Positions 15,001-32,177 of a stretch of DNA of 32,177 nucleotides are shown here, piece by piece. The position numbers are program-made. Positions within the stretch are counted from its first letter, which is position 1. Every line of letters begins with the position of its first letter. This stretch comes from Myxococcota bacterium (lineage in GTDB: Bacteria; Myxococcota_A; Polyangia; Polyangiales; Houyiibacteriaceae), in the NCBI GenBank assembly GCA_039030515.1, contig JBCCEA010000041.1, positions 1-32,177 on the forward strand, written 5' to 3'.

Positions 15001-18000
15001 CCGTCGATCGGGATCGAGCTCCATGGCGCGCGGGCACCCACGTCGATGGACCGTGACTCCTCGTCCTCGGGTGATCCATCCCGTGACCGAGTCTCCAGGG
15101 ACGGGATTACAGCATTTGCCAAACCGGACCAGCATGTCGTCCATGCCCTGAATGAGGATGCAGTTGTCGCTTGGCCTGCGACGCACGCGATTCACCGTGC
15201 GCTCGATCAAACCGGGCTTGAGGTTTTCCTGCGTGGCCGGCTTGTCGGCGGGGACGATCGCTTCCATCACGTCCGACATATCGATGCGGCCATAGCCGAG
15301 CTGAGCGAAGAGCTCCTCGGTATTTTTGCAGCCGAGTTTTTCTACGACCTTCTGCGATTCGGGGCTCTTGAGGAATCTAGCGTAGGAGAGCTCCCGCTTG
15401 CGCATCTGCCGCTCGAAAAGGTCCCGCCCAAGTTTCACGCTTCTCCGGCGCTCCTCCGATCTCAAGTAGGTTCGTATGCGCGAGCGTGCCCGAGCGGTGA
15501 CGACGTGTTCGAGCTGATCTTTGTTTGGCCTTTGGTTGTTGCTCGTGAGGATGTCTACGACGTCGCCGTTGCGCAGCTGAGTGCGCATGGAAACCATCGC
15601 TCCGTTGACTCGAGCGCCAGCGCAGTGATGGCCAACCTCGCTGTGTATCGAGTAGGCAAAGTCGATCGGAGTGGCACCTTGGGGGAAGTTTTTGACGTCT
15701 CCCTTAGGGGTAAATACGAAGATCTCGTCATTGAACAGGTCCACGCGCACCGACTCGTAAAATTCGGCCGGGTCGTTGACCTCCTGCTGAAACTCCATCA
15801 GCTGCCTCAGCCAGGCGAAACGAGCCGCGTCTTTGGCATCGAGGCCACCTGTGCGCTGCTTGTACTGCCAGTGAGCAGCGATGCCGTACTCCGCGGTGCG
15901 ATGCATATCGTGCGTCCGTATCTGCACCTCGATTCGACGATGCTCCGGTCCGATGACGGTGGTGTGGAGCGACTGGTACATGTTGGACTTCGGCAGCGCG
16001 ATGTAGTCCTTGAAGCGTCCCGGCACCGGGGTCCATTCGGAATGCACGACGCCGAGCGCAGCATAGCAATCCGCCACGGTCTCCACCAAAACGCGAAACG
16101 CGGTCACGTCATGAACTTGCTCAAATTCGCAGTCGGTTTTTCTCATTTTGGAAAAGACCGAGTACAGGTGTTTGTGACGCCCAAAGACTTCGACCGCGAA
16201 CCCTCTTTGAATCAACATGTGCTGAAGCTTTTTGATCACCTGACTGACGTACCGATCGCTATCTTTCGTGCGTCGTTCCATCTGAGAGTTCAGGTCTAAA
16301 AAAGCGTCGGGCCAGAGGTACTGAAAGCTCAGATCCTCAAGCTCAGCCTTGAGCCACTGAATTCCAAGTCGGCCCGCAAGCGGCGCGTAGATCTCGACGG
16401 TCTCCCTCGAGATTCGCTCCTGGGAATCCGCGCGCATGTGTTCGAGCGTGCGCATATTGTCGAGTCGGTCGGCGAGCTTCACGAGAAGCACCCGGATGTC
16501 ACGGGCCATCGCGACCAACATCTTGCGGAAACTTTCCGCCTGTTGGTCCTCCCGACAAGAAAAGTTGACCTTGCCGAGTTTCGTCACTCCATCGACGAGG
16601 AACGCAACCTCTTGACCGAACGCTCCTTCGATTTCGTTACTCGTCACCTTCGTATCTTCTACGACGTCATGCAGCAGGGCGGCGCAAACACTGGCCGCAT
16701 CGAGCCTCATGTCGGCGATGATGTCTGCCACCGCTACCGGGTGCACAAAGTACGGGTCGCCTGACTTGCGCATTTGACCCTCGTGCATTCGAGCCGAGTA
16801 AACAAAGGCTTTATTGATGAGGTCGGTATCTGCCTCGGGGTGGTACCCCTTGACCTTGTCGAGGATATCGGTCAGGCGGATCATCACAGAGCAGCCACCA
16901 TCATCCGTTCAAAATCGTTGGTATTTCCAACCAATTATGAAAGTAGCATCGTCGACTCATGGGTACAAGGTTTGCGGTATCGGCGGTCGTCTCTCGCTAA
17001 GATAAGAAGACTATGAAATGAAATGGCTGAAGATGCTTGAGAGAATTGCTGCGGCGCATCGTCGAACGTTCGCTCGGTTTGCTGCCGTCTGTGGCGCGGT
17101 CATCGTTTCGTGGACGCTGTATTCTGAATTACCAAGAGAAATCGAGATCTTGTACAACTACGGGCTGCATCGCTTTGACGTGACCCGCGTCTCGATCGAC
17201 TACCTTAAACAAGGAGAGTCGGTGCACGGGGTTTCCTTCGAGTACCCCAGGGGAACAGCTCCGGCGAAGGAACGACATCGTCTCACCCTGGCTCGTGGCC
17301 ACTATCGCGTCCTCGCCCGACTCAGCTTGGATGGACGGTCGAAAGAGTTTGCGCGCGCTGTAGAAATCCCCCAGTCGGACGTCTATCAAATCGATCTATT
17401 TGAGATCGCGGTCGCTGCGGCCTCGGGAGAACGAAGCGAGCCACCCTACGCTGAAGAACTCCGCAACGTCTGGACGCATCACAACAGTTTGCACGCACCG
17501 CAATGGCTGCTTGCAAACCTGATTCAGGATGCTTTCGGCCACTCCAAGTTCCGAGCGCGCCGCGCCGATGTCGATAGAAGGCGATTTTACACCGAGTAGC
17601 GTCCGGCGATCTGAGGAGCAGGACCGAGGATTTTGCGGCTTGATGCCTTTTCTGTTCGCTGCTTGGTGCGCAGTATTTGGTTCAACAAAACAAGTGGAGC
17701 CACCGTGAGTACAAACATCGACGGGAGATTCGACGCTATTACTCCGCCACTCGTCATACTCAGAATCATCACTAGATAGAGAAGCATACATCCAGACGAG
17801 TTTCGACGATGTTTTGCCCATTCCCAGGCGATACGGCAAAAGAGTCCGCTGAGTGTCATTCCGAAAAATACGCCTAGTATGCCAAAATTGATCCACCACT
17901 CTCCGATTCCTGTGAATGGCTTGCCGGCGGTGCCCGGTAGATATGTTTCTGAAAACCAGTTTCCAGAGGTGATCGTTTTTGGCTTCTCTTCCCAGAGTGT

Positions 18001-30000: not shown

Positions 30001-32177
30001 GGTGCTTCGTCGTCGACAGGGAAGGAAGAGTTCGGCAGTTGGGCTGATGTTCGTGCTTCTCGCGGGGGCCGGTCTAGGGATCTGGGCGGCTCGAGGTCTC
30101 AAGGAGGAGTTCGCAGACGCTAGCCAGAAAAAACTGGAGCTTCTCCTTAAATCGTTCGAGTTTATGCAAAGTTGCCCCTGGGTCGGCGTCGGTAGAGGTG
30201 GGTATTCCGCCGCATTTGTCGAATTCTACGGGAACGATCACCGAGCGCACTACGCGGAGAATCTCATCGCGCAGTGGATTTCAGAGTGGGGCGCCATCGT
30301 CGGCCCAGCGGTCTTACTCAGTTGCGCCATTACGTATGTTCTCGCGGCTAGAAACGCTCGGAATGCAGTTCAAGTCGGTGCTCTGACCGGACTGGGAGGC
30401 CTTGTCTTACAGAACATGGTGGATTTCAGTCTTGAGCTCTCCGGTGTGGCGACAGCAGGTGCGGCTACGCTTGGGGTGGTGACGTCTTTTGCGCGAAAAA
30501 AACTACCCCGTCTTCGGATTGCTCCCTTGAGGACGCATCGAGTGGCGCGACTCGTCGGCACTCTGTCTCTCGGTATAATTTTGTTTTTTGGGTGGAGCGT
30601 GCACCGTGACTCGCTGGTCACGGCTCAAGATCGCCTTGAGAAGTCGCTGGCCACCCCGGAGCTCTTTCAAGACGAATTGCGACGTGCGGTGCAGAAGCAT
30701 CCCTCCGAGCCTGTGTTGGCTCTGCTCGCAGGGCACGAGGCCAGGCGCAGGAACGACCCGATGGCGTTGAGGTGGCTGAGCCGCGCCATGGTGCTCGCCC
30801 CAAACTGGTCGAGCCCTCACGAAGAAGCAGCGTATGCCCTTTTTGCCAGAGGCGCGGTGGAACAAGCGCTAATTTCGCTTCGGGAAGCGCTCGAACGGGA
30901 TCCGTCGATCAAGTCAACGTTGCCTTGCGAAGTATTGAACCTTCGATCTCGCGCAGACCCTACCCTCGATCTTCTTCAGGCCGCGCGGGGAAGAGCCGCG
31001 TCGCGGATGCTCGAGCTGGCTGCAGTGTGTCTTGCCATCGATGCCGATGAAACCCGTCGATTGGATCAGAAGATCCTCTCCCTCGACCAGGACCATGCAC
31101 CGGCGAATCTTCGTGCGGCGCGCCGAGCACGTCGAAATGGAGATTCCGTGGAGGCTCTCGACAAGATATTCCGAGCGGTGCGTAGTGATCCGTCCTCACG
31201 TACAGCTCATCTTTTGCGTCTTGAGTTGCTTCTGGCAAGCCAACAATATCTTGCGGCAGCTCAAGCTGTCGAGTACGCGCAAAAACACCTCGACTCGGTT
31301 TGGGAATTAAAGGCGATGCTGGCAGTGGCCAAGGGAGATGTCGAGGCGATGAGGAGCGCAATTTCGGCTATGCGAGGTAGTGCATCAGAGTCTGCGTCTC
31401 GGCTCGCCAGGACCTATAGGTTTTTAGGAAAGATGGAACTCAAAATGGGCTACCAAGCGCGTGCGATGGCTGCCTATACTCGGGCCTACCGCATCGCTCG
31501 GGACTCTCAATCCCTCGACAAGGTTGCGAATCTGGCAGAACAATTGGGGGATCGTGCAACGCTACGCTGGGCACTCAAACGGCTATGTACGCAAGATTCA
31601 ACACCCCCTCGTGCCTGTAGCGGCCGATCGCCCGACGACTCTATCAAGCCGCGGTTCCCTCGAGCTGTGGTGCTATCAGGTTCATCGAACTAGAAGGGTG
31701 TGGCTCCATTGAGAGGATTGAATCGATGAGCAAATCGGATATCGTCGGAGAAAAGCAAGAGGAAGAATCCCTGATCGACGTCGCGTCGTTCCTAAGGCTG
31801 CTCTGGCAGCAGAAATGGGTTCTGCTCGTCTCCACTGTTGCATTCAGCACGGTAGTCATGTTGTGGACTGCACGGCAGCCCAAGGTCTACGAGGCTATCG
31901 GCACACTGCAGTACGATCCGAATCCGCCTCGTCCGCTCCCCGGTAGCGTGGAGGATATCTCACAAGAAGCCCCCAGCTATCTGGGACAACAAGAGTTCTA
32001 CAAAACTCAAAATCAAATTCTATCGAGTCGTGTGCTGATGGAACGAGTGGTGGAACAGCTAGGGCTGCAGGCAAACCCTGATTTCCTATATATCCCTGAG
32101 GACGAGCGCGATGCTTGGGAAGGCGCCTCGATTTCGGAAGCAGCACTCGCTCTTCAGCTACGACTTGGTGTTCGTCA

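Follow-up and report, generated by a model that had tools for sequence, protein, structure and literature searches.

The locus studied here raises the question of whether a bacterium fuses a heparan sulfate (HS)-type sulfotransferase to a glycosyltransferase and thereby builds a glycosaminoglycan (GAG)-like polymer. The analyzed stretch of 32,177 nucleotides (the window) comes from a soil- or sludge-type Myxococcota metagenome-assembled genome (MAG) that is 85% complete. It would cover the first half of a region for the Wzx/Wzy-dependent synthesis of a surface polysaccharide, be it an O-antigen, a capsule or an exopolysaccharide (EPS). The reverse strand encodes a Wzy-type repeat-unit polymerase of 471 aa (17587..19002; PF01901, E 2.5e-10; PF14296, E 8.9e-9; TIGR04370, 65.2 bits, above the cut-off of 40) and a Wzx/MOP flippase of 508 aa (19051..20577; PF13440, E 4.1e-52, and MOP flippase models). 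The forward strand encodes a membrane-anchored CapD/PglF/WbpM-like UDP-HexNAc 4,6-dehydratase of 645 aa (21089..23026; PF02719 at 296-580, E 2.9e-122; CoA_binding_3 at 73-225) and the inverting UDP-GlcNAc 4,6-dehydratase PseB of 347 aa (23087..24130; TIGR03589 equivalog, 496.9 bits, cut-off 407.75), which was the sole copy of its type in the assembly by tblastn. The UDP-4-amino-4,6-dideoxy-N-acetyl-beta-L-altrosamine transaminase PseC of 446 aa follows (24166..25506; TIGR03588 equivalog, 433.9 bits in two stretches, cut-off 423.5; the next best in the genome has 36% identity). Downstream of the fused sulfotransferase (ST)-GT4 reading frame lie a second GT4 glycosyltransferase of 394 aa (27903..29087; PF00534, E 1.1e-35; PF13439, E 3.8e-16), an 888-aa Wzy_C (O-antigen ligase/polymerase-like) membrane protein with C-terminal TPR (29027..31693; PF04932, E 1.3e-9) and the N-terminus of a Wzz/PCP-2a co-polymerase cut at the contig end (31726..32175; PF02706, E 1.1e-8). 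This gene order is the one given in an earlier note on this DNA.

The fused reading frame (25568..27874, forward strand) is open over 768 codons from a GTG at 25568 and encodes 768 aa. The GTG lies 48 nt upstream of the annotated ATG at 25616 when the first bases of the two codons are compared (45 nt separate the codons), and gives back the PAPS motif ...KLDFVSVGPMRAGTTWL. This longer start, already suspected in the earlier note, is correct judging from the alignment, because all 22 of the 22 aligned stand-alone ST relatives begin ahead of the motif. Pfam confirmed both domains, with Sulfotransfer_3 (E 1.1e-11), Sulfotransfer_1 at 10-180 (E 1.7e-8) and Glycos_transf_1 (PF00534) at 574-719 (E 1.2e-29), the values being those reported before, moved by 16 residues. 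The predicted product reads as an intact PAPS sulfotransferase (residues ~8-280), connected by 63 unconserved linker residues to a complete GT4 domain. The ST domain (residues 1-280, 25568..26407) has its PAPS-binding motifs intact, with the PSB loop GPMRAGTTW at 15-23, E70, and RDP..R..S at 99-107. The linker (residues 281-343, 26408..26596) has the lowest G+C of the frame (0.42-0.44). The GT4 domain, of the retaining GT-B type (residues 344-768, 26597..27874), carries EX7E at 663-671 and could be aligned over its full length with GT4 proteins of ~400 aa, with identities of up to 47%; its PDB relatives are BshA, MshA, WaaG and PimA. No membrane helix was found in the fused protein.

The ST-GT4 fusion of the window is a singleton, not a conserved design. 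At 0 of 160 related loci did the ST run on into a GT4, and wherever the ST frame could be followed to its stop (147 loci), it ended 245-309 codons past the match start. In a search of 1.84 billion representatives, the protein of the window was the only one among the best 150 to cover both domains; 13 long proteins among these 150 were GT4-GT4, GT4-epimerase, GT4-methyltransferase, GT4-Bac_transf, Wzy-GT4 or ST-ST combinations. Nor did any match span both domains in the genomes of 40 relatives. The closest ST relatives (41-45%) occur in the orders PseB-PseC-ST-Wzy_C or ST-Wzy_C-Wzz, with the Wzy_C gene directly 3' of the ST (L011/L013, L095, L097) and no GT4 between. At related loci, a GT4 gene is often a neighbor of the ST, immediately upstream in 10 of 74 and 6 of 50 cases, and immediately downstream in 8 of 65 and 4 of 47. 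A 657-aa GT4-ST protein in a Micavibrio sp. MAG (L072:1247-3220) combines a member of the same ST family, in a single reading frame, with a GT4 part whose alignment with the window GT4 domain covers residues 9-421 and shows 25% identity. However, its domain order is reversed and it lacks the linker; it is an independent fusion.

The join itself suggests how the fusion arose. A T8 homopolymer followed by AAAA (26462..26469, forward strand) lies inside the linker, which had no relatives in sequence comparison; stand-alone STs stop at or before query residue ~300, and stand-alone GT4s begin at query 343-347. With T7 in place of T8, the sequence would read CGG TTT TTT TAA and the ST would stop after 300 aa; when one T was removed at 26462, 3 codons remained before the stop. 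Because the fusion is a singleton and the run lies next to a latent TAA, we interpret the frame as a read-through fusion of recent date; a slip in the assembly is less likely. An extra T in an ancestral T7 run would have changed ...TTT TTT TAA to ...TTT TTT TTA AAA, removed the stop codon of a stand-alone ST and placed it in frame with the next gene over ~100 nt of former spacer. On these observations, the earlier proposal of one protein that both adds and sulfates a sugar is not supported as a conserved design.

The chief alternative, which we regard as possible but rather unlikely, is that the cell contains no fusion. The actual run would be T7, the ST a 300-aa protein ending at TAA, the GT4 a separate protein of ~400-435 aa from one of the in-frame TTG codons at 26567 or 26528, and the eighth T either an error of assembly or consensus or a variant carried by a minority. 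The run does lie exactly where ST family members end, the resulting lengths (300 aa, and 401 or 435 aa) are those of stand-alone relatives, and this account would also fit the fusion being met nowhere else and the low G+C and lack of relatives of the linker. However, the separate GT4 would have TTG as its only in-frame starts, with a GAGGA poorly spaced at 16 nt upstream of TTG 26567, and the reading frame is open for 33 codons beyond the run. Of the 154 homopolymers of at least 8 in the assembly, 109 lie inside long open frames; three look like frameshifts, as this account would need, but 151 leave open frames undisturbed, so indel errors are rare. The codon-usage score in frame 0 was -0.23 at 26423-26512, in a low-G+C locus where this score is weak throughout. 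The sequence is probably sound because of these homopolymer counts and because a 141-nt overlap at the contig end fits a short-read graph assembler with k=141, as the assembler appears to have been. The extra T would then be real in the organism, although an artefact of the assembly or of the population may also explain it.

The overlap is exact and shared with a second contig, C28, on whose reverse strand the Wzz continues with GNVR and P-loop kinase domains (PF13807, PF13614; L175:14935-16857). C28 also carries a sugar N-formyltransferase adjoining a PseI equivalog, a second ST next to these two, and a small priming phosphoglycosyltransferase. These four genes lie 15-19 kb beyond the window genes and are separated from them by Hsp70-like, DnaJ, histidine-kinase and response-regulator genes; the overlap could be a graph branch rather than true adjacency, and a single pathway across both contigs is what we infer. 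In the 85% complete genome, PseH was not found, and PseG and PseF had matches below cut-off only. Because the overlapping contig encodes the N-formyltransferase and PseI, the most likely fate of the 4-amino sugar is a pseudaminic acid, not N-sulfation. The earlier note had argued for possible N-sulfation from a missing N-acetyltransferase; acetyltransferase families indeed had no match among reading frames of at least 100 aa in 17-32 kb, but the N-formyltransferase provides an acyl donor enzyme for the amine nearby, and the argument is therefore not supported.

Taken jointly, a sulfated-polymer Wzx/Wzy locus with an ordinary bacterial ST, a read-through fusion and a Pse route continued outside the window is the reading we consider probable. 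The CapD-like enzyme would supply a 2-acetamido-2,6-dideoxyhexose precursor, and PseB and PseC would supply UDP-4-amino-4,6-dideoxy-L-AltNAc, the precursor of pseudaminic acid. The GT4 domain, judging from its family, would add one sugar to the repeat unit. The ST domain would most likely O-sulfate one sugar in the repeat unit while this is linked to undecaprenyl diphosphate, and would do so before Wzx flipping because PAPS is cytoplasmic.

Alternatively, the ST might take the place of PseH and N- (or O-) sulfate UDP-4-amino-4,6-dideoxy-L-AltNAc or a derived sugar, so that a 6-deoxy or nonulosonic sugar in sulfamido or sulfated form would result; this is a testable form of the earlier N-sulfation idea. 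We consider this improbable. The ST does lie right after PseB-PseC both in the window and in G008/L095 (ST 44% identical), with no acyltransferase between, and the lack of a PseH match, the second ST beside the formyltransferase and PseI, and the NDST1 N-sulfotransferase domain among the structural matches all agree with it. However, a PseC-like gene directly precedes the ST at just 1 of 74 and 1 of 50 loci, both of one lineage type, and the closest ST (46-47%) comes after a Wzy. The N-formyltransferase beside PseI has a C-terminal dimerisation domain; 3-OSTs match as well as NDST, and their common Glu base does not tell N- from O-sulfation; and literature searches, not for that term alone, found no N-sulfated bacterial sugar. 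The ST directly following PseC in the window and one other lineage would allow a link between ST and amino sugar.

The T8 run could also be a slipped-strand switch by which the population alternates between one bifunctional fusion protein (T8) and two separate proteins (T7), with a change in sulfation or repeat-unit structure, as its position at a gene junction of a surface-polysaccharide locus and the plausible products of both states would allow. We find this quite doubtful, given that the genome has 108 A/T runs with a length of exactly 8, mostly within ordinary genes, so the run is not special. Phase variation by such homopolymer tracts is known from host-associated bacteria and is not known from the group of this organism.

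The HS-type assignment of the ST drew on PDB matches, which we reproduced: phmmer with residues 1-300 found 14 distinct sequences at E<=0.1, comprising eight HS 3-OST-1/-3/-5, five NDST1 and 3rnl. In the AlphaFold (AF2) model from a 106-row alignment, the domain (mean pLDDT 90.9) adopted an ST fold, and its best structural matches were the bacterial 3rnl, at the top, followed by NDST1 and 3-OSTs (Foldseek TM 0.55-0.66). The HS flavor arises because of which STs have been crystallised. The animal HS 3-OSTs and the NST domain of NDST1 (3bd9, 1zrh, 1t8t, 1nst, 8ccy) have the fold and PAPS-binding motifs in common with the window ST, and the E of EKSPAYF in 3-OST-5 aligns with E70, the Glu base. 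However, they have only 17-27% identity and TM of 0.52-0.66, 3-OST-5 has Lys at the PSB position where the window ST has Arg as in PF13469 enzymes, and the window locus has no HS backbone genes.

The nearest relatives, in contrast, are bacterial stand-alone STs (PF13469/PF00685, ~270-300 aa) with 40-47% identity across the whole domain and scores of 200+ bits, ending after 245-309 residues unlike the fused frame. At E<=1e-3, the family yielded 40 stand-alone members with lengths of 219-318 aa and a top identity of 47%, and 21 positions are invariant in the 23 closest STs, including G15, T21, W23, K40-E41-T42, E70, R99 and S107. With two peptide patterns alone, relatives were confirmed at 216 places in species-representative genomes and in 381 metagenome stretches; they also occur on 217 plasmids, 76 of them from Sinorhizobium. 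The hosts, both MAGs and isolates, include Myxococcota, Cyanobacteria, Bacteroidota, Binataceae, Gemmatimonadota and Alphaproteobacteria, and the database names are 'sulfotransferase' or 'hypothetical protein', none characterised going by these names. XssA of the synechan cluster scored 74.7 bits (30% identity) against the window ST, versus 49.6 bits for 3-OST-5. By sequence, the window ST belongs, as an ordinary member, to a large XssA-related family of bacterial carbohydrate sulfotransferases that depend on PAPS and are soluble, stand-alone proteins. That the locus makes a GAG-like, HS-mimicking polymer with a true bacterial counterpart of the animal enzymes is very unlikely, since, against the 13 of 14 PDB matches and the TM values, the bacterial relatives are much closer, excerpts of a review (PMC11625862) state that the seeds of PF00685 and PF03567 have a bias toward GAG sulfotransferases, no heparosan-type or other GAG polymerase family is present among the locus proteins, whose transferases are the two GT4s, no UDP-glucose dehydrogenase was found in the window, and assembly is Wzy-dependent by repeat unit with no processive synthase.

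The domain composition, the corrected start, the intact ST motifs, the Wzx/Wzy context and the PAPS supply point to a surface polymer that is probably sulfated, and its kind would be one known from bacteria before rather than an animal-like heparan sulfate. The proposed novelty for prokaryotic glycans is not supported, as excerpts of three papers already describe ST genes in polysaccharide clusters of bacteria, of both the Wzx/Wzy and the ABC type (PMC8205485, PMC11641403, PMC11625862). According to excerpts of PMC8205485, the xss/synechan cluster on plasmid pSYSM of Synechocystis sp. PCC 6803 resembles the window in having a PAPS-type ST in a Wzx/Wzy/PCP cluster and several glycosyltransferases including GT4, and deletion of xssA abolished sulfated EPS. 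XssA (WP_041428258.1, named by position as the first ST of the cluster) aligned with the window ST over 176 aa (E 5e-20), with equal PSB, Glu and 3'-PB positions, but it is a stand-alone 301-aa cyanobacterial protein in a cluster without Pse genes; XssE is more distant (24%, E 6e-6). By their description in excerpts of PMC11625862, the rhizobial and mycobacterial glycolipid or polysaccharide STs NodH, KpsS, LpsS and Stf0 are likewise bacterial PAPS-dependent carbohydrate O-sulfotransferases, and NodH is filed in PF13469 owing to an RxG in the PSB loop, which the window ST also has (MRAGTT). The locus probably represents a known kind of bacterial polymer sulfation, with the fusion itself a one-off. 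The PAPS supply noted earlier was confirmed, with CysD on C25 (502 bits, above cut-off) and an APS kinase on C36 (222 bits). Further ST loci exist in the genome as well, five by a search with PF13469/PF00685 only rather than the six genes counted before.

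The fused ORF (25568-27874, + strand) has 768 open codons counted from the GTG at 25568, and its product starts with MSSNKTIKLDFVSVGPMRAGTTWL (GTG read as M). The annotated ATG at 25616 truncates the start of the phosphosulfate-binding loop. The earlier note on this DNA had placed the start at the upstream GTG, which is right, since all 22 aligned stand-alone relatives of the sulfotransferase (ST) begin ahead of the loop motif. The N-terminal part matched the Pfam families Sulfotransfer_3 (E 1.1e-11) and Sulfotransfer_1 (residues 10-180, E 1.7e-8), and the C-terminal part matched Glycos_transf_1 (residues 574-719, E 1.2e-29). 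GT4 glycosyltransferases of ~400 aa aligned over their full length with residues 343-347 through ~750, with up to 47% identity, indicating that the second half is a complete GT-B enzyme, EX7E motif (residues 663-671) included; its PDB relatives are BshA, MshA, WaaG and PimA. The linker (residues 281-343) matched nothing. The top-scoring hydrophobic 19-mer of the fused protein reached only 1.52, so a membrane helix is absent.

The ST half contains the 5'-phosphosulfate-binding (PSB) loop G-x-x-K/R-x-G-T-T as GPMRAGTTW (residues 15-23) and the 3'-phosphate-binding motif R-D-P...R...S as LRDPVDRAWS (residues 98-107), the latter aligning with VREPTTRAIS of the animal heparan-sulfate (HS) sulfotransferase 3-OST-5. 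E70 lines up with the EKSPAYF glutamate of 3-OST-5 (3bd9), the catalytic base in the 3-OSTs and in the HS ST clade. Among 106 aligned ST sequences, G15, W23, R99, P101 and S107 were invariant, and G20, T21, K40, E41, T42 and E70, among others, were conserved in at least 90%. The PSB residue is Arg in the window's ST, as opposed to Lys in 3-OST-5, and a review passage also notes RxG in the PSB loop of NodH, a PF13469 member (PMC11625862). An AlphaFold2 model of the ST domain, built from the 106-row alignment, had a mean pLDDT of 90.9 and a pTM of 0.87. Foldseek searches with this model returned 90 PDB chains at E<=0.001, and every one listed was a sulfotransferase, in keeping with an alpha/beta ST fold of the domain.

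The earlier note had assigned this domain to the HS type from its PDB matches, and that list was reproduced: the 14 distinct sequences were eight 3-OSTs, five NDST1 and 3rnl. When the search was limited to shorter proteins, 40 stand-alone bacterial STs of 219-318 aa were found, the best with 227 bits and 47% identity. The stand-alone enzymes scored 200-227 bits at 40-47% identity, whereas the HS enzymes scored 37-50 bits, which does not fit membership in the animal HS group. In the Foldseek ranking, the bacterial 3rnl came first, followed by NDST1 and the 3-OSTs (TM 0.52-0.66, identity 17-27%) and then by the CurM ST domain and TPST2. We also compared the domain with the two STs of plasmid pSYSM, which carries the xss (synechan) cluster. 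XssA, the first of them as assigned by position, showed 30% identity over 176 aa (E 5e-20), and with 74.7 bits the window's ST is nearer to it than to the best animal enzyme (49.6 bits); the second pSYSM ST showed 24% identity (E 6e-6). The Pfam ST seeds are described in the same review as biased to glycosaminoglycan sulfotransferases (PMC11625862). Given these closer bacterial relatives, XssA and the biased seeds, the sequence comparisons indicate that the HS appearance is a property of the reference sets and not of the protein. The claim of a bacterial HS-type or N-sulfating enzyme is not supported. A heparosan-like GlcNAc/GlcA backbone fares no better, as the window contains only GT4s and Wzy-type assembly genes, and no GAG synthase or UDP-Glc dehydrogenase family match was found in it.

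With two peptide patterns drawn from the stand-alone ST alignment, 216 relatives were confirmed among contigs from one genome per species and 381 among metagenome contigs. The named records belong to Myxococcota, Cyanobacteria, Bacteroidota, Binataceae, Gemmatimonadota, Planctomycetota, Alphaproteobacteria and Gammaproteobacteria, and relatives are present on 217 plasmids. The window's ST thus belongs to a very large family of small, soluble bacterial STs, uncharacterised and predicted to act on carbohydrates, that are found beside GT4 genes in many phyla. Because they fold confidently, are bacterial in origin and lack a membrane anchor, they would be sensible choices for expression and for sulfation-tool screens, which applies to the whole family and not to the fused copy in particular.

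The whole fused protein was searched against 1.84 billion representatives, and among the best 150 matches both halves were covered only by the window's own record; of the remaining 149, five matched the ST part alone and the rest the GT4 part. Thirteen long matches were GT4-GT4, GT4-epimerase, GT4-methyltransferase, GT4-Bac_transf, Wzy-GT4 or ST-ST proteins by Pfam. A word-index search with the full fused protein found only its own record and, as the sole other long match, a 594-aa protein of Paracoccus sp. (P0003) with two ST domains in tandem. Wherever the ST frame could be traced among the 160 fetched loci, it stopped 245-309 codons past the match start; 13 loci were omitted from the alignment list because of a contig edge, a late start or a length outside 240-310 codons. 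The ST frame continued into a GT4 in 0 of the 160 related loci, and no match spanned both domains in 40 relatives' genomes. With the architecture also missing from the 149 other top representatives, the single bifunctional enzyme proposed earlier is not a conserved one. A limited search of the open-access literature, which is not proof of absence, found no fused ST and GT domains, the matching text describing a separate ST-domain ORF.

The seam in the linker reads AAA CCT CGG TTT TTT TTA AAA CCA, with a run of eight T at 26462-26469. With one T fewer the sequence becomes CGG TTT TTT TAA, and the ST ends at residue 300, inside the length range of its family. The GT4 frame contains TTG codons at 26528 and 26567, which would give proteins of ~435 or 401 aa, like the stand-alone GT4 relatives. 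The simplest history is that a +1 slip in a run of seven T erased the stop codon of a stand-alone ST and joined it to the frame of the next gene. The sequence does not show whether the slip is biological or arose during assembly. We consider it probable that the fusion is real, a possible length-variable tract included, and that this read-through is young. An artefactual eighth T is the less likely explanation, although two points speak for it: the fusion is unique, and the seven-T reading fits perfectly. Of the 154 homopolymers of at least eight bases in the assembly, 109 sit well within long open frames and just three look frameshift-like, which argues against an artefact. So does the end of the contig: its last 141 nt (32037-32177), within the Wzz gene, match exactly, in reverse complement, the end of the assembly's contig C28 (53717-53857), an overlap that we infer to be the trace of a k=141 short-read assembler. 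The three frameshift-like runs, C27:27086 (C10), C38:23478 (A8) and C55:7247 (C8), are sites where a change of one base in either direction would merge two long open frames; they are candidate frameshifts, pseudogenes or assembly slips.

The stretch between the ST and the GT4 is the most A+T-rich part of the ORF (G+C 0.42-0.44), and codon-usage log-odds did not clearly speak for or against a coding linker. Promoter and terminator scans gave four promoter-like sites against 2.2 expected, none of them at the join, and nothing above shuffles; the RNA fold at the junction (z 0.27) was likewise not above shuffles.

Separate ST and GT4 genes are also found side by side. Among loci with enough flanking sequence, the immediate upstream neighbour of the ST was a GT4 in 10 of 74 genome and 6 of 50 metagenome loci, and its immediate downstream neighbour was one in 8 of 65 and 4 of 47, respectively. 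A Micavibrio sp. MAG contig (L072:1247-3220) encodes a 657-aa protein in which a GT4 of the same type precedes an ST of the same family with no linker, that is, in reversed order compared to the window's protein, as an independent fusion. The two independent fusions suggest a common intermediate for both enzymes, and the window's fusion probably joins two enzymes acting on the same intermediate.

The first 17,000 nt of the window are housekeeping genes (HtrA-like protease, MetRS, adenosine deaminase, class-I tRNA synthetase, Ser/Thr kinase and RelA/SpoT). At 8309-11133, two ORFs of 430 and 157 aa lacking any Pfam family precede a membrane protein with an HTTM domain (E 3.6e-7). The polysaccharide genes begin with Wzy (17587-19002, - strand) and Wzx (19051-20577, - strand), both recognized by Pfam/NCBIfam profiles. 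A membrane-anchored CapD/PglF-like dehydratase (21089-23026) is followed by PseB and then PseC (24166-25506) of pseudaminic acid (Pse) synthesis, both equivalog matches with 496.9 bits (cut-off 407.75) and 433.9 bits (cut-off 423.5), respectively. PseC, with 446 aa, matched its 380-position model in two stretches and thus carries an insertion. The fused ORF comes next, then a second GT4, an 888-aa Wzy_C protein with TPR repeats and, at the window end, the first 150 residues of Wzz. ORFs at 17018-17599 (193 aa) and 20438-21022 (194 aa) at the locus edges had no Pfam/NCBIfam match, and the latter, possibly spurious, runs into the start of Wzx. The G+C content is 0.47-0.56 over 18000-29000, compared to 0.57-0.63 in the 2-16 kb part and 0.574 in the genome; low G+C of polysaccharide genes is often seen in exchanged surface-sugar loci.

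The overlapping contig ends indicate that the window's contig and C28 are probably adjacent, with a polysaccharide region of about twice the length seen in the window. Read from the window end, C28 encodes the rest of the polysaccharide co-polymerase (PCP) with GNVR and P-loop kinase domains, and an epimerase/dehydratase. A stretch between the polysaccharide blocks (C28:39600-50900; L175:2211-13820) then encodes a 436-aa protein with 11 RTX repeats (other strand), a 1115-aa PMT_2 (GT-C-like) membrane protein, a 1014-aa Hsp70-like protein with a DnaJ-domain protein, and a PAS histidine kinase with a response regulator. The second block (C28:33600-39100; L093:6619-12030) starts ~15 kb past the window end with a small, divergently oriented Bac_transf priming transferase on the other strand, followed by a 403-aa Sulfotransfer_3 protein as a second ST, a sugar N-formyltransferase (PF00551 and PF18216), the PseI equivalog (TIGR03586, 470.2 bits, cut-off 340.25) and, adjoining PseI, a TIGR04396 surface-carbohydrate protein. 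A search of 300 other genomes from the class gave no relative of the 403-aa ST at E<=1e-15.

The assembly has no further PseB or PseC of the window's type; the nearest other genes share 36% and 34% identity. No match to the PseH model TIGR03585 was found in this 85% complete genome; instead, the sugar N-formyltransferase adjoins PseI. The PseG model matched on C5 (128 bits, cut-off 153.55) and the PseF model on C51 (153.5 bits, cut-off 205.7), in the cytidylyltransferase of a second nonulosonic-acid set, both below their cut-offs. With the formyltransferase and PseI in the same neighbourhood, the plain reading of the genes is that the 4-amino sugar would end as 7-N-formyl pseudaminic acid. Such acids occur in Pseudomonas O-antigens. 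The earlier note had raised N-sulfation for a locus with no N-acetyltransferase, and this neighbourhood takes away the main argument for it. O-sulfation would be more likely than N-sulfation, because the amine has a formyltransferase and the named bacterial carbohydrate STs act on hydroxyls, the acceptors given in the review being 6-O on GlcNAc for NodH, C2 of trehalose for Stf0 and fucose for KpsS (PMC11625862).

Wzx, Wzy and PCP occur here together with at least one ST gene, as in Xss-type clusters. PAPS synthesis is encoded by CysD (502 bits, C25) and an APS kinase (222 bits, C36), and the 695-aa frame after CysD also contains an APS-kinase-like stretch. PAPS is made in the cytoplasm, so the ST would have to act before export. 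The likely acceptor would be the undecaprenyl-diphosphate-linked repeat unit, extended by the GT4s and not yet flipped by Wzx, in line with the general Wzx/Wzy scheme as summarised in PMC8205485. The Wzy or Wzy_C protein would then polymerise the unit, and the PCP kinase would control chain length.

A narrower proposal is that the ST acts on the Pse branch itself, sulfating either UDP-4-amino-4,6-dideoxy-L-AltNAc or the completed nonulosonic acid, at the 4-amino group or at a hydroxyl, with the fusion coupling sulfation to transfer. It draws on the PseB-PseC-ST block, shared with one other genus of the family, and on the second ST beside the formyltransferase and PseI. The order PseB-PseC-ST-Wzy_C was found in G008, a Myxococcales MAG from a different genus of this family, and in a metagenome contig (L095), and the order ST-Wzy_C-Wzz in the locus L097; these STs are 41-45% identical to the window's, with no GT4 between. 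PseI lies elsewhere in the genome in G008 and in a second relative (G020), and its neighbours in G008 have nothing in common with the C28 block. The closest ST of all (46-47%, locus L096) follows a Wzy, and the L101 ST is surrounded by genes for a GT1, a transposase and a methyltransferase, which indicates that the ST family is not tied to one pathway. A PseC-like gene directly preceded the ST in just 1 of 74 and 1 of 50 loci. We regard action on the Pse branch as quite improbable; if true, it would yield a Pse-type sugar carrying a sulfate or sulfamate group, a product not described from bacteria.

The suggestion that such an enzyme would be new for prokaryotic glycans is contradicted by published ST genes in bacterial polysaccharide clusters (PMC8205485, PMC11641403, PMC11625862). 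A knock-out of xssA is reported to show that the gene is needed for the sulfated exopolysaccharide synechan (PMC8205485), ST and cysNDC genes of Vibrio KMM 8419 are tied to a chemically proven sulfated capsule (PMC11641403), and NodH, KpsS and Stf0 are listed as bacterial STs in the review (PMC11625862). What is new here is small: a myxobacterial case of such a cluster, the unique and probably young ST-GT4 read-through fusion and the Pse gene neighbourhood. If the polymer is sulfated, Myxococcota would join the few bacteria whose sulfated surface polysaccharides are defined genetically. The genome also encodes a second nonulosonic-acid set at C51:5969-10585 (L094), consisting of a PseD-like protein, a NeuB-like synthase (375 bits, just below the NeuB cut-off), a NeuC equivalog and a cytidylyltransferase.
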